Shown: positions 12,887 through 46,710, numbered from the stretch's first letter. The stretch: DNA of 64,000 nt from Candidatus Dormiibacterota bacterium (GCA_035279665.1 DATEHI010000052.1:7939-71938); one strand, 5' to 3'. Notes: generated by a model not told the origin, from the sequence alone. Made by a program: numbers and translations.

Positions 12887-13758
12887 ATTCGATCACGCAC
12901 GCGCACGCCATAGAGGCCCTGCGGTCGCGCGATCAGGACGGCGACCAGAATGACGAAAAACACGAAGTTGGCCCAGACCGGCGAGACCAGGACGGCGGTG
13001 ATGTCTTCGGTGACCAGCATGACCAGCGCGGCGACGACGGCCCCGCGCAGACTTCCCAGGCCACCGAGCACGATGATGGTGAGAAGGCGCGAGATCAGAT
13101 CGTAGTGGCTGCCCGGGTTGAACGCATTGGTGATGCCGAACACCACGCCGCCGGCCGCCGCGGTCGCGACCCCGACGCCGAAGGCGAGCGCGGCGACTCG
13201 GTCGACGTCGATGCCGATCAACTGCGCCGCGGTTCGGTTGAGCATTGTCGCCCGGATAGCTCCGCCGAATGCGGTGCGGTAGAGCATCAAGAACAGCGCC
13301 CCCAGGATCGCGAGGCAAAGCACGAAGCCGAAGACATAGACATAGGTGATGCGGAAACCGAAGATCGGAAAGCTGGCGGTCTCGTACCAGGCCCGCAACT
13401 GGACGTAGTTGGTGCTGAAGAAATAACCGAGGACGCCCTCGACGCCAAGGGCGATCGCGTAGGTCACGAGTACGGACAGCGCTTCGCGGTCCGTCCTGAG
13501 CGGGCGAATGAACGCCAGCTGCAAGACGACGCCCAGCGCGAACATGGCCGGCATGGTGACCACCAGGCTGAGGAACGGGTCGATGTGGAAGGAGCGGAAG
13601 AGCGCGAAGCTGAGGTAGGCGCCGAGCACCACCAGCGCGCCGTGGCCGACGTTGATGATGCGCATCACGCCGAAGATCAAGGTGAGCCCCGAGGCCATGA
13701 GCGCGTAGACCCCGCCCGTCAGGATGCCGAGGGCCGCGGCCTGAAGGACGAGGCTCAT
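12883..13758 (-). CDS. livH: Branched-chain amino acid ABC transporter permease (LivH type)
   Basis: LivH-like N-terminus MSLVLQAAALGILTGGVYALMASGLTLIFGVMRIINVGHG. About 8 TM segments. Confidence 0.9.
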   Translation of the reverse strand: MSLVLQAAALGILTGGVYALMASGLTLIFGVMRIINVGHGALVVLGAYLSFALFRSFHIDPFLSLVVTMPAMFALGVVLQLAFIRPLRTDREALSVLVTYAIALGVEGVLGYFFSTNYVQLRAWYETASFPIFGFRITYVYVFGFVLCLAILGALFLMLYRTAFGGAIRATMLNRTAAQLIGIDVDRVAALAFGVGVATAAAGGVVFGITNAFNPGSHYDLISRLLTIIVLGGLGSLRGAVVAALVMLVTEDITAVLVSPVWANFVFFVILVAVLIARPQGLYGVRVRDRI

Positions 13759-13818
13759 CGCGGAAGCAAGCGAAAGATGAGGGGACGGCGCCTGCTGGTC
13801 ACCGTCCCCTCAGCCTAA

Positions 13819-15045: not shown

Positions 15046-15107
15046 GCTCCCTCCCTTCGGGCCAGAATCGACTCATTCTTTTGGCTCAGCCGGTTTGTTC
15101 TTGCATT

Positions 15108-26879: not shown

Positions 26880-27470
26880 CTACGGCATTGCCGCCGGAAG
26901 CCAGGCCGACCGGGCTGTCTCGTAGCGGGCGATAGCGGCCTCCTGTCGCAGCGTCAGCGCGACCTCGTCCCAACCGTTGAGGAGGCACTCGCGGTAAAAC
27001 GGGTCGATCGTGAAGGACGTCTCGAATCCGCCCGCGACGATCCGCTGGGCCGCGAGGTCGACCGTGACCTCCATCCCTGGCTCCTCGGTGGCGAGACGGA
27101 TCAGCTCGGCAACCTGAGGGTCAGGGAGCTCGACCGGGAGCAGCCCGCTACGAAAGCTGTTGCTCTTGAAGATGTCGCCGAAGGAGGGCGCGATCACGAC
27201 GCGAAACCCGGCGTCCAGTAACGACCAGGCCGCGTGCTCGCGCGACGAGCCGCAGCCGAAGTTCTCGCCGGTGACCAGGACTGACGCCCCCCGGTACGCC
27301 GCCGTGTCGAGGATGAACTCGCCGTTACGCCGCCAGTCGTAGAAGAGGAAGGGCCCGAAGCCCGAACGCTCGATCCGTTTGAGGAATTGCTTGGGAATGA
27401 TCTGGTCGGTGTCGACGTTCGACCGATCCAGCGGGGCGAGCACGCCGGTGACACGAGTGAAGGCCTCCAT
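26880..27470 (-). CDS. leuD: 3-isopropylmalate dehydratase small subunit
   Basis: [31 protein letters not shown]... is typical of LeuD. The ATG overlaps the leuC stop. The upstream extension to 27674 is rejected. Confidence 0.9.
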   Translation of the reverse strand: MEAFTRVTGVLAPLDRSNVDTDQIIPKQFLKRIERSGFGPFLFYDWRRNGEFILDTAAYRGASVLVTGENFGCGSSREHAAWSLLDAGFRVVIAPSFGDIFKSNSFRSGLLPVELPDPQVAELIRLATEEPGMEVTVDLAAQRIVAGGFETSFTIDPFYRECLLNGWDEVALTLRQEAAIARYETARSAWLPAAMP

Positions 27471-28873
27471 CAGTTCCTCGAGAATTCCCTCACGTCGACC
27501 AGGTGGCCGGCGATCGCTGCCGCGGCCGCCATCGGTGGGCTGACCAGGTGGGTGCGGCCTCCACTCCCCTGCCGGCCTTCGAAATTGCGGTTGCTCGTCG
27601 ATGCGCATCGCTCGCCCGGCCCGAGGATGTCGGGATTCATGCCGAGGCACATGGAGCAGCCCGCATCGCGCCACTCGAAGCCGGCCGCGCGAAACACCGC
27701 ATCCAGTCCCTCGGCCTCCGCCTGATGCTTGACGCTGGCGGAGCCCGGCACGACCATCGCCCGAACCTTCGGATGGACCATCTGGCCGCGGATCACGGCG
27801 GCCGCCAGGCGGAGGTCCTCGAGACGGGCATTGGTGCAGGAGCCTATAAAGACGCGGTCGATCGCGATCGCCTCGATCTTCGTTCCCGGCTCGAGCGCCA
27901 TGTAGGTGAGCGCCCGGGCATCGGTTTCAGTTGCCGGCTTCGGGACGCTCCCGGTTACTGGCACTGACTGGCCGGGGTTGGTTCCCCAGGTCACGTATGG
28001 CTCGAGGTGCGTGGCGTCGATCGTGACCTCCTGGTCGAATTGCGCGTCAGCCTCCGTCGCCAGCGCCTTCCAGCGCGCGATCGCCTCCTCCCAGTGCTCA
28101 TCGCGGGGCGCATGCGGTCGCCCTTTCAAGTAGGCGAACGTCGTCTCATCCGGCGCCACCATCCCGGCGCGAGCGCCGCCCTCGATCGTCATGTTGCAGA
28201 CCGTCATCCGCCCCTCCATCGACAGCGCCCGCATGGTCGACCCGCGGTACTCGATGACGTGACCTCGGCCGCCGTCGACGCCGATCCTGGCGATGATGCC
28301 GAGCGCAACGTCTTTGGCAGTCACGCCGAGCGGTAGCGCGCCGTCGACCGTCACCGCCATCGTCTTCGGCCGGCGTTGCCGCAAACACTGGGTGGCGAGG
28401 ACGTGCTCGACCTCGGATGTCCCGATGCCGAAGGCGAGCGCGCCGAAGGCGCCGTGGGTCGAGGTGTGCGAGTCGCCGCACACGATCAGCAGGCCGGGCT
28501 GGCTGAGGCCAAGCTCCGGCCCGATGACGTGGACGATCCCCTGGCGGGCGTGCCCCATACCGTAGAGGGCAATGCCCTCCTGCCGGCAGTTGGATTCGAG
28601 CGCCGACATCTGACGTTCCGCGATCTCGTCGGCCGCCGGCCGCCCACCACGCGTCGGCACGTCATGGTCCATGGTCGCCACCGTGAGGTCGGGCCGGCGA
28701 ACCCGCCGGTTGGCCAGCCGCAAGCTCTCGAACGCCTGAGGTGAGGTCACCTCGTGGACCAGGTGGAGATCGACATAGAGCAGGTCCGGGTCACCGTGGC
28801 CCGCGGCGACGATGTGCTGGTCCCAGATCTTGGCGATCATGGTTCGCCCCTTCACGGTAGTCATTGGGCCCAC
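27470..28873 (-). CDS. leuC: 3-isopropylmalate dehydratase large subunit (aconitase family)
   Basis: Aconitase-family motifs ([35 protein letters not shown]-like NAMC region). The start may be one of the internal Met codons (M4 or M12). Confidence 0.9.
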
Positions 28874-28882
28874 AGTTCCAAC

Positions 28883-30577
28883 CTACCTTGTCTCGGCGAG
28901 GGCTCGCACCCGCAAGGCGAGTAGCAGGTCGAGTCGGGCGTCGGCGTCCTTGAGGTCGACCCCGGTGACCTCGCTGATCCGGCGAAGCCGGTAATGAAGC
29001 GTGTTGAGGTGAATGTGCAGGTCACGCGACGACTGCCGGAGGTTGCCATGCCGCTGTAGGTAGACCTCGAGCGTCTTCAGTAACGGCGTGCCACGGGCAC
29101 GGTCGTAGTCGACCAGCGGCGCCAGCATTCGGCCGGCAAAGGCGTCCAGGCCGGCTCGATCTTCGACCTGCGCCAGCAGCCGGTAGACGCCCAGCCGCTC
29201 GTAGTTGATGACCTGCTCGCGTTTGCCGAAGCGCACCATCAGGTCGAGCGCGCGCTGGGCTTCGACGAAGGCGGGCTTGAAGTCTTCCGGCTTCACGCAG
29301 AGCCGGCCGATCGAGACCGACACCGTGATGCCGAGCTCCGACTCGGCGACGGCCTCGCGGATCCGCGTGGCCAGGCCCTCGGCCTCGGGGTCCATGCCGT
29401 CAGCAGGTTGGGGTACCAGCACGATGACGCTATCGCTGTGGGCGCTGACCAGGTGGCGCGGATGCTGCCGGCGAACTGCGCCGGTCACCACCTGGAACAG
29501 CTGATGCTTGAGCGCGATGACGCGCCCTTCCTCGTAGCGTCGCTCTCTGATGAACCGTCCGAAGTGATCCACGTCCACCACCAGCAGCCGGTGTGGCACC
29601 GACAGGTCATAGCGAAGATGTCGCGCCCGGCGCTGCACGTTCGCCTGATCGCCAAAGGTGCCGTTGAGCAGGTCATCGACCAGCTCGCCGCGCACGCGGT
29701 CCTCGGCTTCCGCCACCTCGCGCTGTTTGATCATCTCGAGCGCTATCACCGTGGCGGCGTGCTCGACGGCGATCATAGCGAGCTCCTCGAGATGCTGGGG
29801 ATGGTCGATGATCGAGAGCAAGCCGAGGTGCTCGCGCCCGGCGAGGACCGGCGTGATGATGCGGGGCGCGGTCAGCCCAAGTTCGGGAAATGGGGGAACC
29901 TTACGGGGGACGCGGCCGACGACCACCTCGTGCAGCATGGCTTTGATGGCGGCGGACTGCTGGACCTTGGGCGGCGTGCCGTGGTGGGCGAGCGTCTGCT
30001 GCCGGTGCTTGTCTGTGACGCCGGGAACGACGTGGCTGGCCAGCAGCCGGAAGCTCGCGTCTTCCAGCGCGATCGAGCTCTCGACCAGCTCGCCAAGCTT
30101 CTTGACGATCACCTCCAGGCCCTGGCCGTCCAGGGCGAGGTCGGTGAACTGCCGGTGGATCTCGATCGAGCGCCGGAGCTGGCTGTTCTGGGCGTTGATG
30201 ATCCGCTCCAGGATCGGGTTCATGATCTCCAGGTAGGAGACGTCCGGTGGGATCCGGATCAGAGGAATCTTGAATTCGTCCGCCTGGCCAAGCATGTCCT
30301 CCGGGATCTGGGGAAGGTAACGCTCTGGCTTGATGACCAGCCCGGCGGAGCCGACCGCGGCCAGGTTGCGCATCAGGTCCTTCTGGGCCGCCTGGTCATC
30401 CTTGATGGCGAACGCCACGGTCAGCAGGAGCTCGCCCTCCGCGAGCCAACTGATCGTCTCTGGGGATTCGAGTACCTTGACCCAGGTGATCGTGCGGTCG
30501 AGGCCGCCGGCCCCGGCCAGGACCTCGCCCCTCCTCAACCCCCCCAGCGCCATCGCTTCCCGGACTGTGAGCGCCAT
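28883..30577 (-). CDS. PucR/CdaR-family transcriptional regulator
   Basis: C-terminal PucR HTH (LHIHLNTLHYRLRRISEVTGVDLKD) and N-terminal GGDEF-like/PucR sensor region. Located between leuCD and the divergent ilv/leu operon. Confidence 0.85.
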   Translation of the reverse strand: MALTVREAMALGGLRRGEVLAGAGGLDRTITWVKVLESPETISWLAEGELLLTVAFAIKDDQAAQKDLMRNLAAVGSAGLVIKPERYLPQIPEDMLGQADEFKIPLIRIPPDVSYLEIMNPILERIINAQNSQLRRSIEIHRQFTDLALDGQGLEVIVKKLGELVESSIALEDASFRLLASHVVPGVTDKHRQQTLAHHGTPPKVQQSAAIKAMLHEVVVGRVPRKVPPFPELGLTAPRIITPVLAGREHLGLLSIIDHPQHLEELAMIAVEHAATVIALEMIKQREVAEAEDRVRGELVDDLLNGTFGDQANVQRRARHLRYDLSVPHRLLVVDVDHFGRFIRERRYEEGRVIALKHQLFQVVTGAVRRQHPRHLVSAHSDSVIVLVPQPADGMDPEAEGLATRIREAVAESELGITVSVSIGRLCVKPEDFKPAFVEAQRALDLMVRFGKREQVINYERLGVYRLLAQVEDRAGLDAFAGRMLAPLVDYDRARGTPLLKTLEVYLQRHGNLRQSSRDLHIHLNTLHYRLRRISEVTGVDLKDADARLDLLLALRVRALAETR

Positions 30578-30862
30578 GGGAGTGACTAGTATGCCTCAAG
30601 CGCGGGCTGGCGTGAAGGACCAAAGGAACCAACGACTTTTAGATGGTTTGCACAATAGACTCGGGCGCCTGAGGCTGGTAGCGTTTCGGGTTGAGTCAAC
30701 CGGCGTTGATGGGGATTTACTCACCCCCGGAGCTGGCCGGCTCGACAAGAGCGGCGGCCGTGGCCGCAAGCAGGGTGGTACCGCGGGAGGGGATCCTCTC
30801 GTCCTTGCAGCAGGAACGTGTCGTTCGAGCCAGCCAGCTGCAACGAGGAGGAAGGTACCAAA

Positions 30863-31053
30863 TGGCCAGCTACACCATCGAGATCCCTGACGGGCTGCAC
30901 CACGAGATCCAGGAGCGGCGGCACCAGATCGACGTGGCGGATATCTGCACCCAGGCGCTGACCGCCGCCGTCGCCGGAAGGCCCACCGAGGCCCATCCGT
31001 TCGGGCGCGGACACGAGGTCACCGAAGCGATCAATCGCATGTTCAGTGGTTGA
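30863..31053 (+). CDS. Small ribbon-helix-helix-like protein (63 aa)
   Basis: Strong SD GGAGGA 8 nt upstream of the ATG. MASYTIEIPDGLHHEIQERRH fits the RHH beta-strand plus helix pattern of CopG/antitoxin-like DNA-binding proteins. Immediately upstream of the TPP enzyme gene. Confidence 0.5.
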
Positions 31054-31068
31054 GAGGCGTCGAATCTG

Positions 31069-32865
31069 ATGAGTACTGAAATGATCGACCGCGTCGAGCA
31101 GGAGCTGACACCGTTTGGGCCAGCGCCACTGGAGCGCACCAGCGGCAACTTCTGGCTGATCGAGACGCTGCGGCGCTGGGGCATCACCTCTTACGCGGGT
31201 GTCAACGGTGGTGGCCTCATCCACGTGACCAAGCACCTCGAGCCGTTGTCCGACCCCTCGGAAGCTACCGACGGCGCACCGCGGATGCTGACGATGGGCG
31301 AGTACGTCGCCGGCTTCGTCCCACTCGGCTACTACCTCGCCTCCGGCCGGGTCGCCGGCTGCATCACCACTACCGGCGCCGCCACCAAGTTGGGAGGGAG
31401 CGGTCTGACGGACGCCAAGCTGCACAACATCCCGGCCGTCTATCTGGTCGCCCTCAACTCCACGCTATCGATCGGCCAGGCGCCGCTCCAGGACGTGTCG
31501 GTCCACGGCATGAACATCGTGCCGCAACTCCAGGCGGAGCTAGGTGACGGCTGCATCGTGATCGACGACATCGACACCATGGAGGAGCAGCTCGAGCGGG
31601 CCCAGGCGATCTTGATGGAATCCAAGCCGATCGCCATCGCCTTTTATCCGGACATCCTCTCGAAGGACGTCGAGGTCGACGTGCCCTCACGTCTCCGCCC
31701 CCGCGGCTTTCGACCGCAGGACGTGGAGCGCTTCCTTCAGGACTTTCCACAGATCGCCGACGGGCGCCGGGTCGTCATCTATGTCGGCAGTGAGGCCGCG
31801 CGCTGGCCGGGCATGCCGGCCTTGACCACCCAGCTGTCGGAGTTGCTGCAGGCCCCCACTGTCTGGTCGGTCAACGGGGCCAATGCCGTTTCCCCCGACA
31901 ACCGCTTCGGCTTCGGCTACATCTCCTTCGGCGGCAACGACGAGGCGATGAAGCTCTGGCGAAGTGTCGGTCCCGACGACTGCGTCATCACGCTCGGCTT
32001 CGACCCGGGCGAATATTCCCTCAACCTGGCGACGATACCTGCTGGACAGGTGTGGAACTTCACCGGGTGGACGGAGCAGTACGGCCACATCGCCGGCGAG
32101 TTCCGCCATCGCGTTCGTGGCAACTACGACGTCGTGCACGGGGACCTGGACGCCGTTCTCGAAGAGGTTATTCCGCAGCTCTCGAAGCGTGGCGTCGGCC
32201 GGCGGCCATCGATGGCTGTGCCCGAGCGCCTCAATACGCGCCAGATCTCTCGTGACGTGCGCGAGGGTAGCGTCGACTTCATCCGCTTTTACGAGCAGCT
32301 GCACCAATCGTGGCGGCCGAACAGCATCGGGTTCGACGATGTCTGCATCGCCTACAAGGATCGGCAGTACGTCACCCAGCGACCCCATCCCTGGATTCCG
32401 TTCCACAGTACCCACGACGGGTCGGCGATGGGCGGCGGGTTCGGGCTCGGCGTCGGGGCAAAGATGGCCGACCCGACCCTGCACACCTTCGTCTTCTCCG
32501 GCGACGGCTGCTGGCGCCTGTTCGGCGGCGCGCTGGCCGACGCCGCCAATCTCGACCTGCGGCTCTTCATCATCAACAACGGCGTCTACGGGATCGTCGA
32601 CAAAGGCCTCGAGGTCGTCATCCCCGACGTCGAGAAGCGGCGCTACCATTCGACGCTGCCGACGATCGACTTCGTCGGTGCGGCGAAGGCGCATGGCTGG
32701 GACGGCTACCGGGTGAAGCCGGACTTGAGCAATCTCAAGGAGATCATGGACGCCTGCTACGAGACCTCGGGCCAGTCAATCCTGATCGACGTGCCGGTCG
32801 ACGCCGACCAGGTGATCGGCCTGAACCCTCGGCTGAACAACCTGACGACCAAGACGTACCTCTAA
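31069..32865 (+). CDS. Thiamine-diphosphate-dependent enzyme of the acetolactate synthase/pyruvate oxidase family (divergent; candidate ilvB-equivalent)
   Basis: Three-domain DC-family architecture. C-terminal TPP motif [12 protein letters not shown]...FIINNGVYG. Central GFDPGEYS resembles AlsS IGYDPIEYD. The N-terminal Pyr domain is divergent. The stop overlaps the ilvC ATG (TAATG). Confidence 0.75.
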
Positions 32866-33875
32866 TGGCCAAGGTCTACCACGACGACGACGCCGACATG
32901 GCGGCGCTGGCGGGCCAGCGAGTCGCGGTCATCGGCTACGGCAGCCAGGGCCACGCCCATGCCTTGAACCTGCAGGACAGTGGCGTCGATGTCGTGGTCG
33001 GCCTCTACAAGGGCAGTAAGTCCTGGGAGGCGGCGGAAAAGGAAGACCTGCGGGTCGAGACGGTCGAGAAGGCCGTCGAGCTGGGCAACCTGGTGATGAT
33101 GCTCGTGCCCGATCAGACGCAGAAGCGACTCTACGATGAAGTGGTCAAGCCGAACTTAAAGCCGGGCAGCGCGCTGATGTTCGCGCACGGCTTCAACATC
33201 CACTTCAGCCAGATCCTGCCGGCGGCTGATATCGACGTCACCATGGTCGCGCCCAAAGGGCCCGGCCACATCGTGCGCCGGCTCTTCAAAGAGCGGGTCG
33301 GCGTACCGGCGCTCTTTGCCGTCCACCAGGACACGACCGGCAAGGCGCGCGCCCGCACGCTCGCCTACGCCCGCGGGATCGGCTCGACCATGGCGGGCGT
33401 GCTGGAGACGACGTTCAAAGAGGAGACCGAGACCGACCTCTTCGGTGAGCAGGCGGTCCTCTGTGGTGGACTCACCTCGCTCGTCAAGACCGGCTTCGAC
33501 ACGCTGGTAGAAGCCGGCTACCAGCCGGAGCTCGCCTATTTCGAGTGCCTGCACGAGATGAAGCTGATCGTCGACCTGATGTACCAGGGCGGCATGAGCT
33601 ACATGCGCTACAGCATCAGCGACACCGCCGAGTTCGGCGACTACGTCAGCGGCCCCCGGATCATCAGCCCCGCGGTCCGCGAGGAGATGCGCCAGATCCT
33701 CCGCGAGATCCAGGACGGCACCTTCGCCCGCACCTGGATCCTGGAAAACCAGGCGGGCCGGCCCGCCTTCAACGCCTCCCGGCAGCGCGCCAAGGGCGAG
33801 CTGATCGAGAAGGTCGGCTCGGAGCTGCGCGCCATGATGCCCTGGCTGAAAGCCGACAAGAAGGCCAGCAACTGA
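32865..33875 (+). CDS. ilvC: Ketol-acid reductoisomerase (class I, short form)
   Basis: [22 protein letters not shown] motif and conserved KARI core throughout. Confidence 0.95.
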
Positions 33876-35107
33876 TGGAGGCCCGAGTACCGACACCGAC
33901 GGGCGACCGCGTGTTCATCTTCGATACCACCCTGCGCGACGGCGAGCAATCGCCCGGCGCGTCGCTGACGCCCGATCAGAAGCTCGCGATCGCCTGGCAA
34001 CTCGCTCGCCTGGGCGTCGACGTGATCGAGGCCGGCTTCCCCCTCTCCTCCCCCGGCGATTTTGAGGCGGTGCAACGGATCGCCCGGCAGATTCGAGGCC
34101 CGATGATCACCGCGCTGGCGCGTGCGGCCCGTCCTGACATCGATGCCGTGTGGCAGGCCGTCCAGGATGCCGAGAGAAAGCAGATCCACATGGTGCTCTC
34201 CGTGTCGGACATCCATATCGAGCGGAAGCTTCGCTCCAACCGGCGCGACGTGCTCCGCCGCGGCGTCGAGGCCGTTGCCTATGCGCGCTCGCTGTGCGAC
34301 GACGTCGAGTACTCACCGGAGGATGCGGGCCGCGCCGATCTCGCGTACCTCTTCGAAACGCTCGAGGCGGTGATCGACGCCGGCGCCACGGTCGTCAACA
34401 TTCCCGATACGACCGGTTACACGCTCCCCAACGAGTTCGGGGCGCTGATCGCATCGATCTGCGAGAACGTCCGCAACATCGACCGGGCCTTGATCAGCGT
34501 GCATTGCCACAACGATCTCGGCCTCTCGACCGCGAACAGTATCGCCGCCGTCCTGAATGGCGCTCGCCGGGTCGAGTGCACGATCAACGGCATCGGCGAG
34601 CGGGCCGGCAACGCCTCGCTCGAAGAAGTCGTGATGATCCTCCGCACCCGCGAGAAGTCACTCGGGCTGCGAACCGGGATCGACACCACGCGCCTGGCCG
34701 AGGTCAGCGCGCTGGTCTCGCGACACACCGGCATTCCGGTGCAGCCCAACAAGGCGGTGGTCGGCGGCAACGCTTTTGCGCACGCCTCCGGCATCCACCA
34801 GGACGGGGTCCTCAAGGACAAGCTGAATTACGAAATCATGCGGCCCGAAGAGGTCGGGATGGGAGAAAGCCGGATCGTGCTCTCGCCCCGCTCGGGACGG
34901 CACGCGTTCCAGTTCCGCCTGGGGGAGCTCGGGTATCACTTGTCGGAGGCGGACTTCGGAAGGGCCTGGGAGCTCTTCCTGGAGCTCGCCGACCGCAAGA
35001 AAGACATCCTCGATCGGGACCTGGAGGATATCGTGCGCCGCACACAGTCGCTGGTATCCTCGATTCCTCCCCCTCCGGGGGAGGGCAGGGTGGGGGTGAT
35101 CGCCTGA
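33875..35107 (+). CDS. 2-isopropylmalate synthase / (R)-citramalate synthase family, short form (about 410 aa, no C-terminal LeuA regulatory domain)
   Basis: [15 protein letters not shown] and [21 protein letters not shown] (DRE-TIM metallolyase). The gene ends after the catalytic and subdomain II regions. The C-terminal tail [13 protein letters not shown] is encoded by a palindromic repeat. ATG overlaps the ilvC stop. Confidence 0.85.
35067..35098. repeat. Short GC-rich palindromic repeat, copy 2 (CCCTCC-ggg-GGAGGG with G-rich tail)
   Basis: Seen directly. It is related to 8712..8750 and lies in-frame at the leuA 3' end immediately before the TGATG junction with ilvE. Confidence 0.55.
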
Positions 35108-36096
35108 TGGCCGTCGAGCCCCTGCACCCGTCGGAGACCGCGCCACCCCCGCCCACGAAGGCGATCTATGGCGGCTTTGCCTACTTCAAGGGCGCGATCG
35201 TGCCCTTCGGCGAGGCGAACGTCAGCGTCGGCACCCATGCCCTGAACTACGGCACGGGATGCTTCGAGGGGATTCGCGGGTACTGGAACGCCGAGCAGCA
35301 CGAGATCTATCTCCTGAAATTGGCCGAACATTACGAGCGGTTCCTCAAGTCGACGGCGCTGCTCAAGATCAAGCTCGAGGAGAATGTCGACCAGCTGTGC
35401 GAGCTGACGCGCGAGATCGTCCGCCGTGACGGCTTCCATACGGACGTTTATGTCCGGCCGATTGCCTTCAAGTCCTCCGCCATGATCAAGGTCGATCTTC
35501 ACTCGTCCGAGGATGCGGTCGCGATCTTCGCCATGCCGATGGGGGCCTACGCACGGATCGATGGGTTGCGAGTCACGATCTCCTCCTGGCGGCGGGTCAG
35601 CGACAACAGCATCCCGGCTCGGGCGAAGATCACCGGCGCCTACATCAACACCGCGCTGGCCACCGAAGATGCCAACGCCGCCGGTTACGACGATTGCCTG
35701 ATGCTCACGGAGGACGGTCACATCGCCGAGGGGGCCGCCGCCAACTTCTTCATGGTCCAGGGCAGAACCCTGATCACGCCCCCCGTCACCGACGACATCC
35801 TGGTTGGCATCACCCGGGCCGCGGTGATGGGGCTGGCCCTTGACCTCGACCTCGACGTCGTCGAGCGAAGCATCGACCGGACCGAGGTCTACCAGGCCGA
35901 TGAGGCCTTCCTCTGCGGCACCGGTGTCCAGGTGGCGCCGATCGTCGAGGTCGATGGGCGCGCGGTTGGCAGCGGCCGGCCCGGCACGATCACCATGGGA
36001 CTTCAGGAGGCGTATTTCCGCGCGGTGCGGGGCCAGGACCCGCGCTACCGGCAATGGTGCACCCCCGTTTATGGGGGGATGCCCCGAATTAGGTAG
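35107..36096 (+). CDS. ilvE: Branched-chain amino acid aminotransferase (class IV PLP enzyme)
   Basis: Class IV aminotransferase motifs (FEGIRGY, ITPPVTDDILVGITR, EAFLCGT). Confidence 0.9.
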   Translation: MAVEPLHPSETAPPPPTKAIYGGFAYFKGAIVPFGEANVSVGTHALNYGTGCFEGIRGYWNAEQHEIYLLKLAEHYERFLKSTALLKIKLEENVDQLCELTREIVRRDGFHTDVYVRPIAFKSSAMIKVDLHSSEDAVAIFAMPMGAYARIDGLRVTISSWRRVSDNSIPARAKITGAYINTALATEDANAAGYDDCLMLTEDGHIAEGAAANFFMVQGRTLITPPVTDDILVGITRAAVMGLALDLDLDVVERSIDRTEVYQADEAFLCGTGVQVAPIVEVDGRAVGSGRPGTITMGLQEAYFRAVRGQDPRYRQWCTPVYGGMPRIR

Positions 36097-36152: not shown

Positions 36153-36258
36153 CGGTTATCAAGAGTGGCGGAGGGACCGGCCCAGAGATGCCTGCCAACC
36201 TACCGGAATACCGGCAAGGTGGAAAGTCCGTCAGACGAGAGTCTGAAAGATGATGCAG
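36153..36258 (+). ncRNA. SAM-I riboswitch (S-box leader) aptamer
   Basis: UUAUCAAGAG-UGGCGGAGGGAC-CGGCCC-AGAGAUGCC-UGCCAACC...GGUGGAAAGUCC...GUCAGACGAGAGUCUGA-AAGAUGA aligns to the S-box consensus nearly position for position (for example B. subtilis yitJ: CUUAUCAAGAGAGGUGGAGGGACUGGCCCGAUGAAACCCGGCAACC...GGUGCCAAUUCC...AAAGAUGAG). Confidence 0.8.
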
Positions 36259-36363: not shown

Positions 36364-37608
36364 GTGAAGCAGTTGCGATGTCGGGAGTGCGGACGATTGC
36401 GGGACTTCGAGCCCGCCTACGTCTGCGAGCACTGTTTCGGACCGCTCGAGGTGGCGTACGACCTCGACGCCGTCAGGGAGCGGGTCAGCCACGACTCGAT
36501 CGCGAAAGGACCGAACACCATCTGGCGCTATCGAGAGCTGTTGCCCGCCCCGGACAGCGAGCCCATCGACCTGGGGACGGGCTTCACGCCGTTGGTGCAC
36601 GCCCCCAACCTCGGGAAGGTCCTGGGCCTCGATCATCTCTACCTGAAGAACGACACGGTGAACCCGACCGGCTCGTTCAAGGATCGCAACGTCGCGGTCG
36701 CCACCAACTTCGCGCTCTCCTACGGCTTCGACACGCTCTCCTGCTCCTCCACCGGTAACCTCGCCGGCTCGGTCGCCGCCTACGCGGCGCGCGCGGGAAT
36801 GCGCGCGCTCGTCTTCATTCCCGCCGATCTGGAGCCGGGCAAAGTCGGCGCGGCGAGCGCCTATGGCGCCACCGTGGTCGAGGTCAACGGCACCTACGAC
36901 GACGTCAACCGGCTGTGCGTCGAGCTCGCCGACCTATACGGCTGGGCGATCGTCAACGTCAACCTCCGGCCGTTCTATTCCGAAGGGAGCAAGACGCTGG
37001 CGTTCGAGGTGGTGGAACAGCTCGGCTGGAGGGCGCCCGATCATATCGTCGTTCCCGTCGCCGCAGGGTCCCTGCTCGCCAAGACCGCCAAGGCGTTCCA
37101 GGAACTCTTCGGCGTCGGCCTCGTCGACCGGGTCTCCACGCGGATCCACGCCGCGCAGGCGGAAGGCTGCGCCCCCGTGAGCACGGCCATCAAGGAAGGC
37201 CGCGACCAGGTCACGCCGGTGCGGCCGAATAGCATCGCGAAGTCACTGGCCATCGGCAACCCCGCCGACGGCCGCTACGCGGCACGGGCGGTGCGCGCCT
37301 CGGGAGGGTGGGGTACCGCCTGCCGCGAGGACGCGGTCCAGAAAGCGATGGCACTGCTGGCCGAGACCGAGGGCGTCCTGAGCGAGCCCGCCGGTGGCGT
37401 CGTGGTCGCCGGGCTCGAGGAACTCATCGGGAGCGGGCGCATCCGGCGGGAGGAAACCGTCGTGATCTGCATCACCGGCAACGGCCTGAAGACGACCGAG
37501 CTCTTCGACGTCCGCGATGGGCTCCGGCTGCACCTGGCGAAGCCCCGCGCGTCAGAGTTCGAGAAGGCGCTGGCTGCTGCGGAAAAAGCCCCAGCCGCGG
37601 TCGCATGA
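36364..37608 (+). CDS. Threonine-synthase-family PLP enzyme with N-terminal Cys4 zinc ribbon (ThrC paralog; MetM-like candidate)
   Basis: CRECGRLRDFEPAYVCEHC zinc ribbon, PLP lysine motif PTGSFKDRN and fold-type II core. GTG start. A second canonical thrC exists at 45670..46710. Confidence 0.85.
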   Translation: MKQLRCRECGRLRDFEPAYVCEHCFGPLEVAYDLDAVRERVSHDSIAKGPNTIWRYRELLPAPDSEPIDLGTGFTPLVHAPNLGKVLGLDHLYLKNDTVNPTGSFKDRNVAVATNFALSYGFDTLSCSSTGNLAGSVAAYAARAGMRALVFIPADLEPGKVGAASAYGATVVEVNGTYDDVNRLCVELADLYGWAIVNVNLRPFYSEGSKTLAFEVVEQLGWRAPDHIVVPVAAGSLLAKTAKAFQELFGVGLVDRVSTRIHAAQAEGCAPVSTAIKEGRDQVTPVRPNSIAKSLAIGNPADGRYAARAVRASGGWGTACREDAVQKAMALLAETEGVLSEPAGGVVVAGLEELIGSGRIRREETVVICITGNGLKTTELFDVRDGLRLHLAKPRASEFEKALAAAEKAPAAVA

Positions 37609-38681
37609 CCCAAACGCTCCGGGTCGGAGTCATTGGCGCGACCGGGCTCGCCGGCCAGCAGGTGCTGGCCGCACTGGTCCAGCACCCGTGGTTCACGGTT
37701 GTGGCGGTGGGCGCCTCCGAGAGCTCGGCCGGGAAATCGCTGGACCACGCGCTCCGTGACCCGTCTGGTGCAAGCCGCTGGTTTGCCGAGGGTCATCCCG
37801 ATGGGTCGCTGCTGTCGCTCCGCTGCCTCAACGCTGAGCAACTCCTCGCGCAGCCGCTCGACCTGGTCTTCAGCGCGGTCTCAAAAGAGGTCGCGGAACT
37901 CTGGGAGCCTCGCTTTGCGGAACGGGTGCCCGTGATCAGCACCGCGTCGGCGTTTCGCTATGACCCCGATGTCCCGATCTTGATCCCCGGGATCAACGAC
38001 GCGCATGCCGAAGCGCTGCACGATCAGCGCCGCAACCGCGGCTGGCGCGGCTTCATCGCGCCGATCCCCAACTGCACGACGAGCGGGCTGGCCGTCTCGC
38101 TGAAGCCGCTCCAGGATGCCTTCGGCGTCCGCACCGTGATGATGACCTCGCTCCAGGCCGTCTCGGGCGCGGGCCGGCAGGACGGGGTGCTGGCGCTCGA
38201 CGTGATTGACAACGTCATCCCCTTCATCCCCGGTGAAGAAGAAAAGGTCGAGCGCGAGACGAAGAAGATCCTCGGGCACTGGGGCGAGCCCGCGCAATTT
38301 ACGGTTTCGTGCACCTGCACCAGGGTCAATGTCCAGGACGGACACCTGGAAGCCGTTTACGTTGGGACGGAGCGGCCCTCCGATGCAGCGACGGCCACCG
38401 CCGCGATGGAGCGGTTCGGCGTCGACGGACTCAAAGGTCTCCCCTCGGCGCCCGAACGGCTGCTGCAGGTCAATCCCGACCCCTTCCGACCGCAACCACG
38501 CCGGGACCGCAACGCGGGCGACGGCATGACGGTCACCGTCGGCCGCGTGCGCGACGAGCCCGCGCTCCACGGGGTGAAGTACGTCGTGCTTTCGCACAAC
38601 ACCAAGCTCGGCGCGGGCAAGGGGGCGGTCCTTACGGCTGAATGGCTGACGCGGGAGGGATTTATTGTCAGCAATTCCTGA
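37605..38681 (+). CDS. asd: Aspartate-semialdehyde dehydrogenase
   Basis: MTQTLRVGVIGATGLAGQQVL NAD(P) motif and active-site region IPNCTTSGLAVSLKPL. ATGA overlap with the upstream gene. Confidence 0.9.
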   Translation: MTQTLRVGVIGATGLAGQQVLAALVQHPWFTVVAVGASESSAGKSLDHALRDPSGASRWFAEGHPDGSLLSLRCLNAEQLLAQPLDLVFSAVSKEVAELWEPRFAERVPVISTASAFRYDPDVPILIPGINDAHAEALHDQRRNRGWRGFIAPIPNCTTSGLAVSLKPLQDAFGVRTVMMTSLQAVSGAGRQDGVLALDVIDNVIPFIPGEEEKVERETKKILGHWGEPAQFTVSCTCTRVNVQDGHLEAVYVGTERPSDAATATAAMERFGVDGLKGLPSAPERLLQVNPDPFRPQPRRDRNAGDGMTVTVGRVRDEPALHGVKYVVLSHNTKLGAGKGAVLTAEWLTREGFIVSNS

Positions 38682-39903
38682 GTCCCTCACGCGACCGATC
38701 CTCGTTCAGAAGTTCGGCGGTACGTCGCTCAGTACGCCTGCCCGCATCAAGCGGGCGGCCAAGCGGGTCGCCGCGAGCCGGCGGACGGGCTACGACGTCG
38801 TCGTTGTGGTCAGCGCCATGGGGGACTCGACCGACCACCTGGTGAGCCTGGCGTCGCAGGTCGCGAAAGAGCCGACCGCGCGCGAGCTCGACCTGTTGCT
38901 CTCGACCGGGGAGGGCGTCTCGGCCCCGCTGATGTCGATGGCCCTCAACGAACTGGGCGTGCCGGCCGTCTCTCTCCTCGGCTTCCAGGCGGGCATCCAG
39001 ACCGACCAACGCCACGCGAAGGCTCGCATCGTCGGTCTTACCCCGGGTCGGATCGAGCGCGAGCTGGCCGCCGGGCGGGTCGTCGTGGTTGCCGGCTTCC
39101 AGGGCATGGGCGACGAGATGGAAGTGACCACCCTCGGACGGGGTGGCTCGGACACGACGGCCGTGGCGCTCGCCGCGGCCCTCAAAGCGCAAGCCTGCGA
39201 GATCTTCACCGACGTGCGCGGCATCTACACCGCCGATCCGCGATTCGTTCCGAACGCGCGATTGCTGCCGCACATCGCTTACCCGGAGATGCTCGAGCTG
39301 GCCAGCTCTGGCGCCCAGGTGATGCACCCGCGAGCCGTCGAGATCGCCGAGGCCTACTCGATGGAGCTGCATGTCCGCTCGAGCTTCCACGCGGGGCCGG
39401 GTACCATCATCAGTTCAGAGGCAACGATCATGGAAGAGCGGAATCGCGTAAGGGGCATCGCGCACGAGGAGCACGTCGCCCGGCTCTCCGTGGTCGGCGT
39501 CCCGGATCGGCCCGGCATCGCCGCCGCCATCTTCGCGCCGCTGGCGGAAGCCGACATCGCCGCCGACGTGATCGTGCAGACCGCGAGCCACGAAGGTGTA
39601 ACCGACATGTCGTTCACGGTGTCATCGGCCGACGGCAGGCAGGCCGAGCGCATCGTCCAGGGCGTCGCCAAAGAAATCGGCGCGCGCACGGTGCTCGCGC
39701 AAAACGGCCTCGCCAAGGTCTCCGTGATCGGGAGCGGCATCCGTGGGCAACCTGGCGTGGCGGCGACCATGTTCCGCACGCTGTCGGACCACGGCATCAA
39801 CATCGAGATGATCTCCACGTCGGAGGTGCGCATCACCTGCATCATCGAGGCAAGAAAGGTCAAGGACGCCGTCACGGCTCTGCACGAGGCGTTCAGGCTG
39901 TAG
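38665..39903 (+). CDS. lysC: Aspartate kinase with C-terminal ACT domains
   Basis: LVQKFGGTSL kinase N-terminus and two ACT-like repeats at the C-terminus (LSVVGVPDRPGIAAAIF..., VSVIGSGIRGQPGVAATMF...). TTG start overlaps the asd 3' end. Confidence 0.88.
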   Translation: MSAIPESLTRPILVQKFGGTSLSTPARIKRAAKRVAASRRTGYDVVVVVSAMGDSTDHLVSLASQVAKEPTARELDLLLSTGEGVSAPLMSMALNELGVPAVSLLGFQAGIQTDQRHAKARIVGLTPGRIERELAAGRVVVVAGFQGMGDEMEVTTLGRGGSDTTAVALAAALKAQACEIFTDVRGIYTADPRFVPNARLLPHIAYPEMLELASSGAQVMHPRAVEIAEAYSMELHVRSSFHAGPGTIISSEATIMEERNRVRGIAHEEHVARLSVVGVPDRPGIAAAIFAPLAEADIAADVIVQTASHEGVTDMSFTVSSADGRQAERIVQGVAKEIGARTVLAQNGLAKVSVIGSGIRGQPGVAATMFRTLSDHGINIEMISTSEVRITCIIEARKVKDAVTALHEAFRL

Positions 39904-40817
39904 TGTCCAAAAGCGCCGCGGTGCGGGTCCCGGCATCGTCGGCCAACCTCGGACCGGGCTTCGATGTGCTCGCCCTGGCGCTCGACCTCCACCTCACGCT
40001 CGAGGCGCGCGAGTCGCCGACGACGACGATCACCTGGAAGGGCGAAGGCGCCGGGGAAGTGCCGCTCAACCGCAAGAACCTGATCGTCCGCGCAGCCGAG
40101 GAGCCGTTTGCGGGTTGGAGCCGCCCGCTGAGTGGACTCGAGGTTCGCGTGAAGAACGACATACCGATCGGCCGCGGCCTGGGCAGCAGTGCCGCCGGTA
40201 TCGTCGCGGGGATCACGCTGGGAGCGAAACTGCGCGGCCTGCGAATGCCGGCGCAGCGGCTCCTCGAGCTCGCCATCCCGCTCGAGGGCCATGGTGACAA
40301 CCTGGCAGCCGCGCTCTACGGTGGCTTCTGCATCGCCGTCATCGAAAACGGCGGGGTGCGCGTGCACCGCCTCGACTGGCCAGCCCGCTGGCGGGCCGTC
40401 CTGTTCGTTCCGAACGAAGTATCTCCCACTCACGAGGCCCGCCGCCTGGTGCCGCGCCGTCCAACGCGCGAGGATGCGGTCTTCAATCTTGGCCGGGTCG
40501 CGGAGTGGGTGCTCGCGTGCTCCCAGAAGGACCGCTCGCTGGTCGCTAGCGCGATGGACGACCGGCTGCATCAGCCCGGCCGGGCGCAGGCCTATCCCTA
40601 TCTGGACGACACGATCGCGGCGGCCGAACAGGCGGGGGCCCTGGGGGCGGCGCTCAGCGGCGCGGGCGGCAGTGTCATCGCCGTTGCGGATCGAAACCTG
40701 GCGGCCGTCGGCATGGCGATGATCAGGGCCGCGGGCTTGCACGGAGTCAAGGGGAGTATGGCCATGCTGAGGGCCTCGCCGGCCGGCGCTACCCTGAAAA
40801 AAGACCGGTCCCTGTAA
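39903..40817 (+). CDS. thrB: Homoserine kinase (GHMP kinase family)
   Basis: VPASSANLGPGFDVLALAL and GHMP motif PIGRGLGSSAAGIVAG. GTG start overlapping the lysC stop. Confidence 0.9.
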   Translation: MSKSAAVRVPASSANLGPGFDVLALALDLHLTLEARESPTTTITWKGEGAGEVPLNRKNLIVRAAEEPFAGWSRPLSGLEVRVKNDIPIGRGLGSSAAGIVAGITLGAKLRGLRMPAQRLLELAIPLEGHGDNLAAALYGGFCIAVIENGGVRVHRLDWPARWRAVLFVPNEVSPTHEARRLVPRRPTREDAVFNLGRVAEWVLACSQKDRSLVASAMDDRLHQPGRAQAYPYLDDTIAAAEQAGALGAALSGAGGSVIAVADRNLAAVGMAMIRAAGLHGVKGSMAMLRASPAGATLKKDRSL

Positions 40818-44611: not shown

Positions 44612-45646
44612 TCATGAGGCTGCAGGATACGGGTTCTTTGGTCCGAGCGGCGCGACCGCCGTCAGCGGCATGTCCGCCAGGCTCGCGAGCAGCGAGCCCG
44701 CTGACGCGGGCACATCCCTTGCCGCCCGTAACAGATCGGCGAGCACCGCGCTCGCGGCGGCGTCCGGGCCGGCCCCCGGCCCTTCAAAGGTGAGCGGCCC
44801 GGCGTATTCGGCGTCGAGGCTGATCGCATTCATCGCGCCATGGACGCGCGCCATCGGCGCAGCCGCGGGGACCAGTCGTGGACGGACGTCGGCCTCGATA
44901 GAGGCATCGTCGTGGATCGTCGCCGCCGCGAGTAGCTTGATGACGAATCCACGCCCGCGTGCCGCCTCGACCTGCACCGGATCGACGCCACGAATCCCGA
45001 CCCGATCAATCTGGGAGGGATCGATGCGGCGCCGAAAGGCCAGCATCACGAGGATGGCAAGCTTGGCGGCCGGGTCATGCCCATCGACGTCGGCGCTCGG
45101 ATCGGCCTCGGCGAGGCCGCGGCGCTGAGCGTCCGCGAGGGCTTCCGCATAGGTCGCCCCGCCGTCAATCGCGGCGAGGATCGAGTTGGTCGTGCCGTTG
45201 AGGATGCCCATGATCGAGCGGATCCGGTCCGCGCCGAGCGTGTCGGCCAGGGTTTCGACGATCGGGATCGCGCTGGCGACGGAGGCCTCGAACCGAATCG
45301 GCCCGAGTCGCGCCAGCTGCGGCCCTTCCGCGGCGATCAACTGCTTGTTGGCCGTAATCACCTGGCGGCCTGCCTGGAGCGCCGTATGTATATAGGTATG
45401 CGCCGGTTCCAGGCCGCCCATCACCTCGACGACGGCATCGAGCTGTGGCTGGGCCAGCAATTGCGCGGCGGGGAGCAATGGTGCCGGTGCGCGCCGGCCC
45501 TGAGGGTGCGCCACCGCAATGGCTTCCAGCTGGATCGGCCGGCCGGCGGCCTGCGTGATCCGATCGGCATCCTCCACCAACCGTCGCGCCAGCGCTCCGC
45601 CGACGTGGCCAAGGCCGAGCAGCCCAACGCGATACGGGGCACGCAT
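44612..45646 (-). CDS. hom: Homoserine dehydrogenase (no C-terminal ACT domain)
   Basis: VGLLGLGHVGGALARRL NAD-binding motif, catalytic-domain motifs and ANKQL. 344 aa. Confidence 0.88.
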   Translation of the reverse strand: MRAPYRVGLLGLGHVGGALARRLVEDADRITQAAGRPIQLEAIAVAHPQGRRAPAPLLPAAQLLAQPQLDAVVEVMGGLEPAHTYIHTALQAGRQVITANKQLIAAEGPQLARLGPIRFEASVASAIPIVETLADTLGADRIRSIMGILNGTTNSILAAIDGGATYAEALADAQRRGLAEADPSADVDGHDPAAKLAILVMLAFRRRIDPSQIDRVGIRGVDPVQVEAARGRGFVIKLLAAATIHDDASIEADVRPRLVPAAAPMARVHGAMNAISLDAEYAGPLTFEGPGAGPDAAASAVLADLLRAARDVPASAGSLLASLADMPLTAVAPLGPKNPYPAAS

Positions 45647-45669
45647 TCGGGAACGCTACCATCACCGCC

Positions 45670-46710
45670 ATGACCGCCGGCATCATCGAGCGCTACGCGG
45701 CGTATCTGCCGGTTACCCCGTCGACCCCCCGCATCACGCTTGGTGAGGGGTCGACACCACTAGTCCGGTCGTCGAGGATAGGCCCGGCGATCGGGCTCGA
45801 CCAGCTCTATTTCAAATGCGAGGGCCTGAATCCGAGCGGGTCGTTCAAGGACCGCGGGATGGCGCTCGCCACGGCCAGGGCGATCGAGGCCGGGTCCCGA
45901 ACGCTGATGTGCGCCTCGACCGGGAACACGAGCGCCTCTGCGTCGGCCTATGCCGCCCGCTTTGGTCTGCGCGCGGTCGTGGTCGTGCCCGCCGGAGGCG
46001 TCGCCGCCGGAAAACTGGCGCAGGCACTCGCCTATGGCGCGATCATCGTGACCGTCAAGGGATCGTTCGACCGCGCGCTGACCCTTGTGCGCAAGCTGGC
46101 GGACGAACCTACTGTCACCCTGGTGAACTCGGTCAACCCCTATCGCATCGAGGGTCAGAAGACAGCGGCCTTCGAGATCATCGAACAGCTGGGCCGCCCA
46201 CCGGCACAGCTCTTCATTCCGGTGGGCAACGCCGGCAACATCACCGCCTACTGGCGCGGGTTTCGCGAGCTCGCCGGCCGCAGTACCGCGTCACTCCCGA
46301 CGCTGCACGGCGCGCAGGCCAAGGGAGCGGCGCCGCTGGTCCGCGGACGGCCGGTGGCACGGCCGCAGACGGTCGCGTCCGCGATTCGGATCGGCAACCC
46401 CGCCTCCTGGAGCGCCGCCATTGCGGCACGTGACGAGTCGGGCGGCACGATCGAAGCCGTCAGCGACGACGAGATCATCGCGGCGCAGCGACGGCTGGCG
46501 CGCGAAGAAGGTCTGCTGGTCGAGCCGGCATCAGCGGCCGCCGTGGCCCTTTTGCTGAAAAGGGCGCCCGCCGGAACCCTGGGCGACGAGCCGGTTGTTT
46601 GCGTGCTTACCGGTCATGGGCTCAAGGATCCGCAGGCCCTGACTCGTGGCTCACGAGTGCCTCGGCCCGTTGAGCCGACGCTCAAGGCGCTGCGACGCGC
46701 GATCGGCTAA
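45670..46710 (+). CDS. thrC: Threonine synthase (canonical short actinobacterial/Bacillus type)
   Basis: Near-colinear with M. tuberculosis ThrC (EGLNPSGSFKDRGMALA..., CASTGNTSASASAYAAR, VNSVNPYRIEGQKTAAFEI, VGNAGNITAYW, LTGHGLKDP). Confidence 0.95.
   Translation: MTAGIIERYAAYLPVTPSTPRITLGEGSTPLVRSSRIGPAIGLDQLYFKCEGLNPSGSFKDRGMALATARAIEAGSRTLMCASTGNTSASASAYAARFGLRAVVVVPAGGVAAGKLAQALAYGAIIVTVKGSFDRALTLVRKLADEPTVTLVNSVNPYRIEGQKTAAFEIIEQLGRPPAQLFIPVGNAGNITAYWRGFRELAGRSTASLPTLHGAQAKGAAPLVRGRPVARPQTVASAIRIGNPASWSAAIAARDESGGTIEAVSDDEIIAAQRRLAREEGLLVEPASAAAVALLLKRAPAGTLGDEPVVCVLTGHGLKDPQALTRGSRVPRPVEPTLKALRRAIG

Follow-up and report, generated by a model that had tools for sequence, protein, structure and literature searches.

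The analysed window, a stretch of 64,000 nucleotides from a Candidatus Dormiibacterota bacterium (GCA_035279665.1, DATEHI010000052.1:7939-71938), contains an ilv-leu operon for branched-chain amino acid (BCAA) biosynthesis of a Dormibacterota bacterium. The operon is preceded by a reduced T-box leader, probably specific for leucine, and consists of a small open reading frame (ORF), a gene for a thiamine diphosphate (ThDP)-dependent enzyme, ilvC, a short leuA and ilvE (Table 1). The ThDP-dependent enzyme is predicted from its sequence and context to be, most likely, an acetohydroxyacid synthase (AHAS) that is independent of the regulatory subunit IlvN. The combined explanation, in which an AHAS-like role of this enzyme goes together with T-box control, is considered reasonably probable, and the identification of the T-box is much firmer than the assignment of the enzyme function. 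What is new here is a separate ilvC-linked ThDP family within the AHAS-like carboligases, previously undescribed; neither the Stem I platform nor Stem II is present in the T-box, an unusual feature. The same layout was found in 24 other species-level genomes (window-type loci), so that the arrangement, rightly called atypical for BCAA synthesis in an earlier reading of this sequence (the original prediction), is conserved and is not due to chance.

Identification of a reduced T-box, probably specific for leucine

Alignment of 23 intergenic regions between the small ORF and the divergent PucR-family gene showed long conserved blocks, among them AGGGTGGTACCGCG, and a subsequent Rfam rescan by E-value matched RF00230 at 30697-30809 with 35.9 bits (E=2.3e-6). 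The gathering threshold of this family is 93 bits, and the element had therefore been missed in the Rfam scan at gathering threshold, in which an S-adenosylmethionine (SAM) riboswitch was the only element found in the window. The match leaves out the upper part of Stem I in full, and Stem II/IIA-B as well. Stem I (approximately 30693-30743) begins with a basal helix. Above it lie a K-turn-like internal loop (UGA/GGAG) and a helix of four pairs, whose terminal loop carries an invariant UA-CUC-A. This terminal loop is the Specifier Loop, with the specifier CUC-A at 30720-30723, a leucine codon followed by a purine. A linker of 11 nt, ending in AAGAG, leads from Stem I to Stem III, which is followed by AA, and the RRRNG-Stem III-AA motif is thus present as AAGAG-stem-AA. 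The T-box sequence AGGGUGGUACCGCG (30772-30785) is invariant and holds a UGGU bulge (30776-30779) within UGGUACC; CUCA and UGGU were both invariant across the aligned loci. The UGGN bulge and the RRRNG-Stem III-AA motif are described T-box discriminator features (PMC7778990).

The proposed pairing was found in 90.5 % of cells on 17 sequences, versus 37-55 % with slid partners, and compensatory changes were seen at 10 pairs, compared with 2-4 in the controls. In Stem III and the (upper) antiterminator helices pairing reached 97-100 %, with compensatory change in seven pairs. A covariance model, R1, built from the T-box alignment of the intergenic regions, matched all 25 window-type loci with 85-130 bits, while nothing comparable was matched elsewhere. 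Canonical full-length T-boxes (98 bits) with CUC followed by a purine lie directly before the enzyme gene in two Armatimonadota loci, L030 and L046, and the occurrence of CUC in these homologous operons supports the specifier reading in the window. No tRNA gene was found in the window. The leader is probably a leucine-specific T-box, a function that we infer from its conservation. The original prediction had proposed the region 30578-30862 as the target of a DNA-binding protein of the ribbon-helix-helix (RHH) type encoded by the small ORF. This region holds the T-box leader, which had gone unseen and is probably the main cis-regulator of the operon.

Downstream of the T-box sequence, CCUCUCGUCCUUGCAGC (30795-30811), the extended 3' strand of the antiterminator, is complementary to GCUGCAACGAGGAGG (30837-51), which contains or overlaps the Shine-Dalgarno (SD) sequence of the small ORF, and the two segments are paired in the minimum free energy (MFE) fold. 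This proposed sequestrator duplex has an energy of -24.4 kcal/mol in the window versus -14.6 +/- 3.4 for shuffles. In most related loci it lies between -20 and -29 kcal/mol, while shuffling the SD region gives approximately -15 +/- 3, and the duplex is not followed by a U-run; L020, L021, L022 and L059 have a hairpin and a U-run instead of the sequestrator. Most of these leaders thus resemble translational T-boxes, and a few resemble transcriptional ones. According to a review, Stem I is often truncated in T-boxes of the translational type, in which case Stem II becomes essential (PMC7583486).

A tentative promoter, whose hexamers are conserved and whose spacer is variable in the alignment of the 23 regions, would start the transcript at approximately 30690, the first base of the T-box. 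The consensus scan of 30400-31200 for promoters and terminators found none, so this promoter is a tentative reading of the conserved hexamers. Just upstream of the putative -35 hexamer lies a partial inverted repeat, AACCA-N12-TGGTT (30627-30648), which only some members of the clade retain (L016 and L023, for example, do not) and which may be a regulator binding site.

L046, with the operon order enzyme gene, ilvB, ilvN, ilvC, leuA, leuCD, has a Guanidine-I/ykkC-type riboswitch match (63 bits) in tandem with its full-length leucine T-box (267-370 and 427-644). The ykkC variants of the tandem type sense ppGpp. As a clue to the function of the enzyme this match was dropped, because tandem T-box and guanidine-type elements before BCAA operons have already been reported, in Bacillota (PMC12452182). 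In L071, from Nitrospinae, a full-length T-box (14502-14747, 101 bits) precedes leuA and not the ThDP enzyme gene, which is located 2.7 kb upstream, beside ilvC.

Sequence family of the ThDP-dependent enzyme

The gene in the ilvB position encodes, as had been proposed, a thiamine pyrophosphate enzyme of the acetolactate synthase/pyruvate oxidase superfamily, with all three Pfam ThDP domains (N, M and C) passing their cutoffs, narrowly, at 37, 32 and 61 bits. The divergence reported for its N-terminal domain is real and extends over the whole enzyme, which scores 79.2 bits with the IlvB model TIGR00118 against a cutoff of 538 and so falls outside canonical IlvB. The best NCBIfam models were the AHAS large subunits; the scores of approximately 79 bits against cutoffs of 538-976 place the enzyme 7-10 times below the cutoff of every NCBIfam AHAS model. 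The AlsS model (TIGR02418) gave 38-45 bits. For reference, the true IlvB of locus L051 scores 796 bits with TIGR00118.

Hundreds of metagenomic relatives share 70-88 % identity with the enzyme and, where named, are called 'acetolactate synthase large subunit' or 'thiamine pyrophosphate-dependent enzyme' and assigned to Candidatus Dormibacteraeota or Chloroflexota. A search of 1.84 billion cluster representatives returned approximately 20 full-length 50 %-identity clusters at 396-747 bits (36-58 % identity), and the next proteins scored at most 86 bits. Judged by these scores, the enzyme is a member of a discrete, separate family that is paralogous to IlvB, and not a drifted IlvB.

Among family members that are 36-74 % identical, the catalytic glutamate (E78), the glutamine of the AHAS FQE motif (Q141), GDG478-480 and N504 are invariant. 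The family retains the GDG...NN ThDP/Mg motif and has a specific C-terminal tail, NPRLxNL. The family profile, compared with solved structures, matched E. coli AHAS I IlvB (6lpi) first with 116.7 bits and BbmA second with 105.8 bits, while in a search of the PDB with the single sequence BbmA/CsmA was the top match, at 20 % identity. When the profile was aligned to E. coli IlvB, GFDPGEY stood opposite the GARFDDR of AHAS, and YVGEE (in the window, GSE) opposite YLGGG; this alignment was made at approximately 20 % identity and carries some uncertainty. The RFDDR arginine of AHAS presumably binds the acceptor carboxylate, and the GGG motif is taken to be part of the flavin adenine dinucleotide (FAD) site. 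The AlphaFold2 (AF2) model of the enzyme (pLDDT 90) has the usual three-domain fold (Pyr, middle and PP), to which BbmA, AHAS, glyoxylate carboligase and pyruvate oxidase were equally near in a Foldseek comparison (TM approximately 0.75, 16-20 % identity).

Distribution and gene neighbourhood of the enzyme family

Relatives of the enzyme were detected in 234 species genomes in a scan of one genome per species, seeded with a narrowed family alignment because the full-family alignment was too divergent. Gene context was counted in the best 80 loci from these genomes together with L001 (81 loci), onto each of which the window proteins were mapped. Among the best 80 loci are those of Dormibacterota, of Chloroflexota (Limnocylindria and others), of Methylomirabilota (NC10), Rokubacteria and Armatimonadota, and of one Nitrospinae genome. 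The enzyme gene was adjoined by ilvC in 73 of the 81 loci, representing at least four phyla. It was followed directly by ilvC in 48 loci, preceded by leuA with a convergent ilvC in 18, and followed by canonical ilvB, ilvN and ilvC in seven. No ilvC was seen in the remaining eight, four of which have less than 700 nt of downstream sequence and are not assessable. The KARI (ketol-acid reductoisomerase) gene also follows a family member with 49 % identity.

An ilvN gene did not adjoin the enzyme gene in 74 of the 81 loci and, where present, stood after a separate canonical ilvB. The middle genes of the seven loci with both encode a true IlvB (TIGR00118, 796 bits) followed by a true IlvN, and this indicates that the family is a paralogue able to coexist with IlvBN. 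Some Methylomirabilota genomes have the order enzyme gene, ilvB, ilvN, ilvC and others have the enzyme gene directly before ilvC. Three states were found in Armatimonadota: classical operons without the gene, an operon with the gene added before ilvBN (L046) and an operon with the gene directly before ilvC (L030). Such a series of absent, added and alone is the trace expected from displacement by an analogue, and is the main argument for an AHAS-like role.

No ilvN, canonical ilvB (a second acetolactate synthase-type gene) or ilvD was found in the Pfam survey of the 64-kb window, which bears out the earlier statement that no ilvN follows the enzyme gene. A tblastn search of the window with true IlvB and IlvN gave a single match, a weak one to the 598-aa ORF. 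More than 50 Dormibacterota loci were examined and none contained a canonical ilvB or ilvN. When the IlvB of L046, from Armatimonadota, was used as the query of a protein search, all proteins found were of the Armatimonadota type, which is uninformative on Dormibacterota.

A second Dormibacterota clade, comprising L001 and 17 similar loci (e.g. L025 and L032), has a full-length leuA of 577 aa directly upstream of the enzyme gene and a KARI gene of 499 aa convergent to it, with neither the small ORF nor a PucR neighbour. Neither Rfam nor model R1 detected a T-box in these loci.

More distant members of the family, with 36-48 % identity (in Chitinophaga, Dyella, an archaeal-looking contig and others), lack ilv neighbours. 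In Chitinophaga varians and Dyella, members with 44-48 % identity each have, at most 20 nt downstream, a gene whose product of approximately 158 aa contains a MEKHLA domain, with no ilv genes nearby, and this pair (L082, 10001-12224; L083/L084, 10001-12230) is conserved across two phyla. Another distant member has a Cache-domain gene upstream. These members indicate that the wider family is not uniformly AHAS.

Conservation of the small ORF

The prediction of a 63-codon ORF with a perfect SD sequence holds (GAGGAGGAAGG, 7 nt upstream of the start), with the correction that the ORF map places the start at 30862 and not at 30863. No interruption of the ORF was seen in any of 24 loci; its SD, ATG and C-terminus are conserved, and its length varies in frame from 59 to 63 codons. 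Within codons 1-38, changes at third positions numbered 3198 versus 1061 and 611 at the other positions, and the N-terminal 38 residues are strongly conserved. All 93 homologues are at least 64 % identical and annotated as hypothetical, and the few organism names given are nearly all Candidatus Dormibacteraeota. This conservation, the third-position bias and the homologues indicate that the small ORF is a real conserved gene and, as far as its relatives reveal, one confined to Dormibacterota. The AF2 model of this small acidic protein (pLDDT 69) consists of an extended segment and helices at residues 10-22, 25-38 and 50-62.

In L020 (8449-8502), an in-frame internal deletion of the central 45 codons has cut the ORF to 17 codons (MASYAIEAAAINRIFGD), with the N- and C-terminal residues, SD, start and stop kept and the T-box (110.9 bits) and enzyme gene intact. 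With this locus included, the SD, ATG and stop position are kept in 25 of 25 loci. This deletion suggests that translation at the position of the small ORF matters at least as much as the peptide. The enzyme gene's own SD overlaps the stop codon of the small ORF (TGAGAGG). Attenuation by a leader peptide was rejected for the small ORF, which has no run of leucine, valine or isoleucine codons.

Proposed mechanism and alternative explanations

In the proposed mechanism, uncharged tRNA-Leu would pair with the CUC specifier and the UGGU bulge and so hold the anti-sequestrator in place; otherwise the 3' strand would pair with the SD of the small ORF and block its translation. Translation would then run on through close or overlapping junctions from the small ORF to the ThDP enzyme gene, ilvC, the short leuA and ilvE. 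The enzyme, as a stand-alone AHAS, would condense pyruvate with pyruvate or 2-oxobutyrate and feed the adjacent ketol-acid reductoisomerase, and may have taken the place of IlvBN in this lineage. Feedback would act on gene expression, through the T-box and perhaps the PucR-family regulator, and not through allostery. A wider claim joins two statements: that the enzyme represents a third, unrecognised class of AHAS, anabolic, without a regulatory subunit and probably without FAD, which, after its addition to ilv operons, displaced IlvBN in Dormibacterota and parts of Chloroflexota, Methylomirabilota and Armatimonadota; and that the leader is a functional minimal T-box, which recognises tRNA-Leu in the absence of both the Stem I elbow platform and Stem II and transmits its translational decision to the entire operon by way of a conserved small leader cistron. 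As a whole this claim is put forward tentatively, as a possibility short of a probability.

The chief competitor to an AHAS role is that the enzyme catalyses another ThDP reaction on the 2-oxo acids of the BCAA pathway, such as a different hydroxy-keto-acid carboligation or a decarboxylation, and that a real ilvBN lies elsewhere in the genome. Several observations weigh against AHAS and towards this account. In seven loci the enzyme gene shares an operon with an intact ilvB-ilvN, where redundancy with AHAS is not required, and the distant members paired with MEKHLA or Cache sensor genes stand outside any ilv context. The arginine of RFDDR aligns to the tyrosine of the FDPGEY motif, G(S/E)E replaces GGG, the curated AHAS models all score far short of their cutoffs, and BbmA, a non-AHAS carboligase, is as near as AHAS in sequence and fold. 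No member of the family was found to be characterised in the searched literature, in which nothing relevant was found on Dormibacterota with acetolactate synthase or on BbmA/CsmA or HKA synthases either, and the absence of ilvBN covers 64 kb of this genome and approximately 0.7 Mb of related loci. On the side of the leader, the T-box lies far below the Rfam gathering threshold and has neither a Stem I platform nor Stem II. However, AHAS is the sole ThDP-dependent step that feeds ketol-acid reductoisomerase, and the adjoining ilvC, often with a stop/start overlap, recurs in 73 of the 81 loci. The enzyme gene stays while ilvBN comes and goes in otherwise identical operons (L046 versus L030; L051 versus L060), which fits redundancy, it heads the enzyme genes of leucine T-box operons, and Dormibacterota loci lack canonical ilvB and ilvN throughout those examined. 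A non-AHAS reaction is for these reasons regarded as unlikely, and the AHAS role is retained as the preferred reading.

The small ORF allows two further accounts. The original prediction held that its 63-aa product is an RHH repressor or activator that binds 30578-30862 and, with the PucR-family protein, controls transcription. The predicted extended N-terminal segment followed by two helices is in an RHH-like order, in hhalign alignments to seven RHH proteins residues 1-19 fell in register with the strand and the beginning of helix A, the N-terminal 38 residues are strongly conserved, and the inverted repeat upstream of the putative -35 could be read as an operator. However, the hhalign probability was only 19 %, no Pfam hit with E<=10 was obtained among 14 members, no RHH protein appeared in the PDB profile search, and lysine is absent from the protein, in which acidic and basic residues are about equally numerous (counted by eye); this would be unusual for a DNA-binding RHH protein. 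L020 dispenses with the centre of the protein and the conserved intergenic blocks are explained by the T-box RNA. The RHH assignment found support in no test and is quite improbable. The other account takes the small ORF to be mainly a translated leader cistron, whose ribosome-binding site is gated by the T-box and from which ribosomes, once finished, restart at the enzyme gene 6-16 nt further on, or shield the mRNA from Rho, so that the switch is passed to a five-gene operon; the peptide could also be a small partner of the enzyme. This agrees with the pairing of the sequestrator with the SD of the small ORF, the retention of SD, ATG and stop position even in L020, the overlap of the enzyme SD with the stop codon and the overlap of all downstream junctions. 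It is doubtful as a full account, since clear purifying selection on the peptide is needless for a pure spacer ORF, the terminator-type loci L021, L022 and L059 retain the small ORF, and clades without it express the enzyme in its absence. A leader-cistron role, possibly with an additional protein function, is favoured.

Operon layout and flanking genes

The stop codon of the ThDP enzyme gene overlaps the start of ilvC, as had been noted, with TAA sharing bases with ATG (TAATG), and the ilvC/leuA and leuA/ilvE junctions are both TGATG overlaps. The short leuA has the HMGL-like and HCS_D2 domains of Pfam and lacks the C-terminal LeuA_dimer regulatory domain. It matches NF002086 above the cutoff of 532 bits, over model positions 5-384 of 516, and scores 200 bits with the CimA model TIGR00977 against a cutoff of 450. 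By these matches it is an ordinary member of the bacterial LeuA family, simply truncated after model position 384.

Table 1. Features of the ilv-leu operon and its flanking genes (window coordinates)
Feature	Position	Strand	Basis or remark
Tentative promoter, TAGACT - 17 nt - TAGCGT	30656..30684	+	Hexamers conserved in 23-region alignment
Reduced T-box leader	30690..30812	+	Rfam RF00230, covariation, model R1
Proposed SD sequestrator	30795..30855	+	MFE fold, duplex energies
Small ORF	30862..31053	+	63 codons; first cistron after T-box leader
ThDP-dependent enzyme, 598 aa	31069..32865	+	ORF map, Pfam, NCBIfam
ilvC (ketol-acid reductoisomerase, class I, 336 aa)	32865..33875	+	NF004017 546 bits
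leuA, short (2-isopropylmalate synthase catalytic core, 410 aa)	33875..35107	+	NF002086 604 bits
ilvE (branched-chain amino acid aminotransferase)	35107..36096	+	NF005146 344 bits
PucR-family transcription regulator	28883..30577	-	Pfam PucR 111, GGDEF_2 69, HTH_30 75 bits
leuC (3-isopropylmalate dehydratase large subunit)	27470..28873	-	TIGR00170 732 bits
leuD (3-isopropylmalate dehydratase small subunit)	26880..27470	-	NF002458 269 bits, TIGR00171 229 bits

The operon is divergent from the PucR-family gene, which precedes leuC-leuD with a gap of 9 nt, in agreement with the original prediction, and is apparently co-transcribed with leuCD. The encoded protein belongs to the PucR family, with the PucR, GGDEF-like and HTH_30 domains all above Pfam cutoffs. 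The link to the operon is a conserved one, the PucR-family gene being the divergent neighbour in all window-type loci (24 related), and in Limnocylindria short PucR-like helix-turn-helix (HTH) genes precede the enzyme gene. A weak CodY GAF-like match was found in the protein (Pfam E=1.4e-4, residues 240-297; NCBIfam CodY E=2.3e-5). CodY senses BCAAs through its GAF domain, and the protein could be a BCAA-sensing PucR-type regulator. With an enzyme that has no IlvN and a 2-isopropylmalate synthase (IPMS) that has no leucine-binding domain, both classical allosteric checkpoints of the pathway appear to be missing, and control would then fall to the T-box and perhaps also to the PucR-family protein.

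The surrounding region, 26880-47801 (approximately 21 kb), is a supercluster of amino-acid biosynthesis genes comprising leuDC, the ilv operon, thrC-like/asd/ask/thrB, trpEG, hom, a second thrC and leuB. A BCAA ATP-binding cassette (ABC) transporter is encoded at 10391-15072. The SAM riboswitch (RF00162, 61.8 bits; 36153-36256, + strand) lies upstream of 36364-40817, where a threonine-synthase-like gene with an N-terminal Cys-rich segment is followed by asd, the aspartate kinase gene and thrB; the second thrC paralogue is at 45559-46710 (TIGR00260, 287 bits). This arrangement hints that the SAM-controlled operon serves methionine synthesis from O-phosphohomoserine rather than threonine synthesis.

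Significance

Should the enzyme prove to be an AHAS, several abundant uncultured phyla of soil and groundwater would make valine, leucine and isoleucine through a first committed step whose catalyst is rejected by the curated AHAS models, and this has a bearing on auxotrophy predictions from metagenomes. It would also be an example of how a central, herbicide-targeted enzyme gets replaced, and a natural AHAS free of a regulatory subunit, with possible use in the engineering of branched-chain products. If the T-box works, it is a natural T-box without the Stem I platform and Stem II, which tests the view that tRNA binding needs one of them, and its small leader cistron suggests a route by which a translational riboswitch could govern a polycistronic operon.

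Comparison with known systems

The IlvB/IlvI/IlvG family (TIGR00118) has in common with the window enzyme the three-domain ThDP fold, the catalytic Glu, the FQE-type Gln, the GDG...NN motif and a gene position directly ahead of ilvC, at the head of the enzyme genes in an ilv-leu operon, and IlvB (6lpi) is its best solved relative by family profile. The window enzyme differs from IlvB in being only approximately 20 % identical, in having no small subunit (IlvN/IlvH), in its NPRLxNL tail and in having FDPGEY for RFDDR and G-S-E for GGG. AlsS is likewise a stand-alone enzyme without a regulatory subunit and works without FAD, but it is no closer in sequence and sits in acetoin (alsSD) operons and not in T-box-controlled biosynthetic ilv-leu operons. 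BbmA/CsmA (PDB 8x3x and 8x3z; the former titled 'ThDP-dependent HKA synthase'), whose biology is taken from the PDB titles alone, lead both the single-sequence search and Foldseek and have, like the window enzyme, a G-x-x-x-G-[DE]-[WY] motif where AHAS has RFDDR. Their identity to the window enzyme is 20 % only, and we know of no link between them and ilvC.

The specifier of the Bacillus ilv-leu T-box is also CUC. The tRNA-Leu T-box that controls the B. subtilis ilvBNC-leuABCD operon is likewise leucine-specific and stands before the gene for the leading enzyme, ilvB (PMC12452182), a position mirrored by the ThDP enzyme gene behind the canonical T-boxes of L030 and L046. That T-box is full-length and of the terminator type, whereas the window element is approximately 120 nt long, has neither the upper Stem I nor Stem II/IIA-B, and belongs to a group that works mostly, it appears, by SD sequestration. 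The ileS T-boxes of actinobacteria are translational and have an ultrashort Stem I; they, too, have no tRNA-elbow platform and act by SD sequestration rather than termination (PMC7583486). They keep Stem II, said to be essential with a truncated Stem I (PMC7583486), and have an isoleucine specifier, whereas the window element has 11 nt between Stem I and Stem III, a leucine specifier and a biosynthetic operon headed by a small ORF. IPMS without a regulatory domain is known from IPMS_Sufob (NF041069) and Leptospira LeuA2 (NF042434), which like the window leuA product consist of the HMGL-like and HCS_D2 core only (approximately 370-410 aa); the window protein belongs instead to the ordinary bacterial LeuA family (NF002086).

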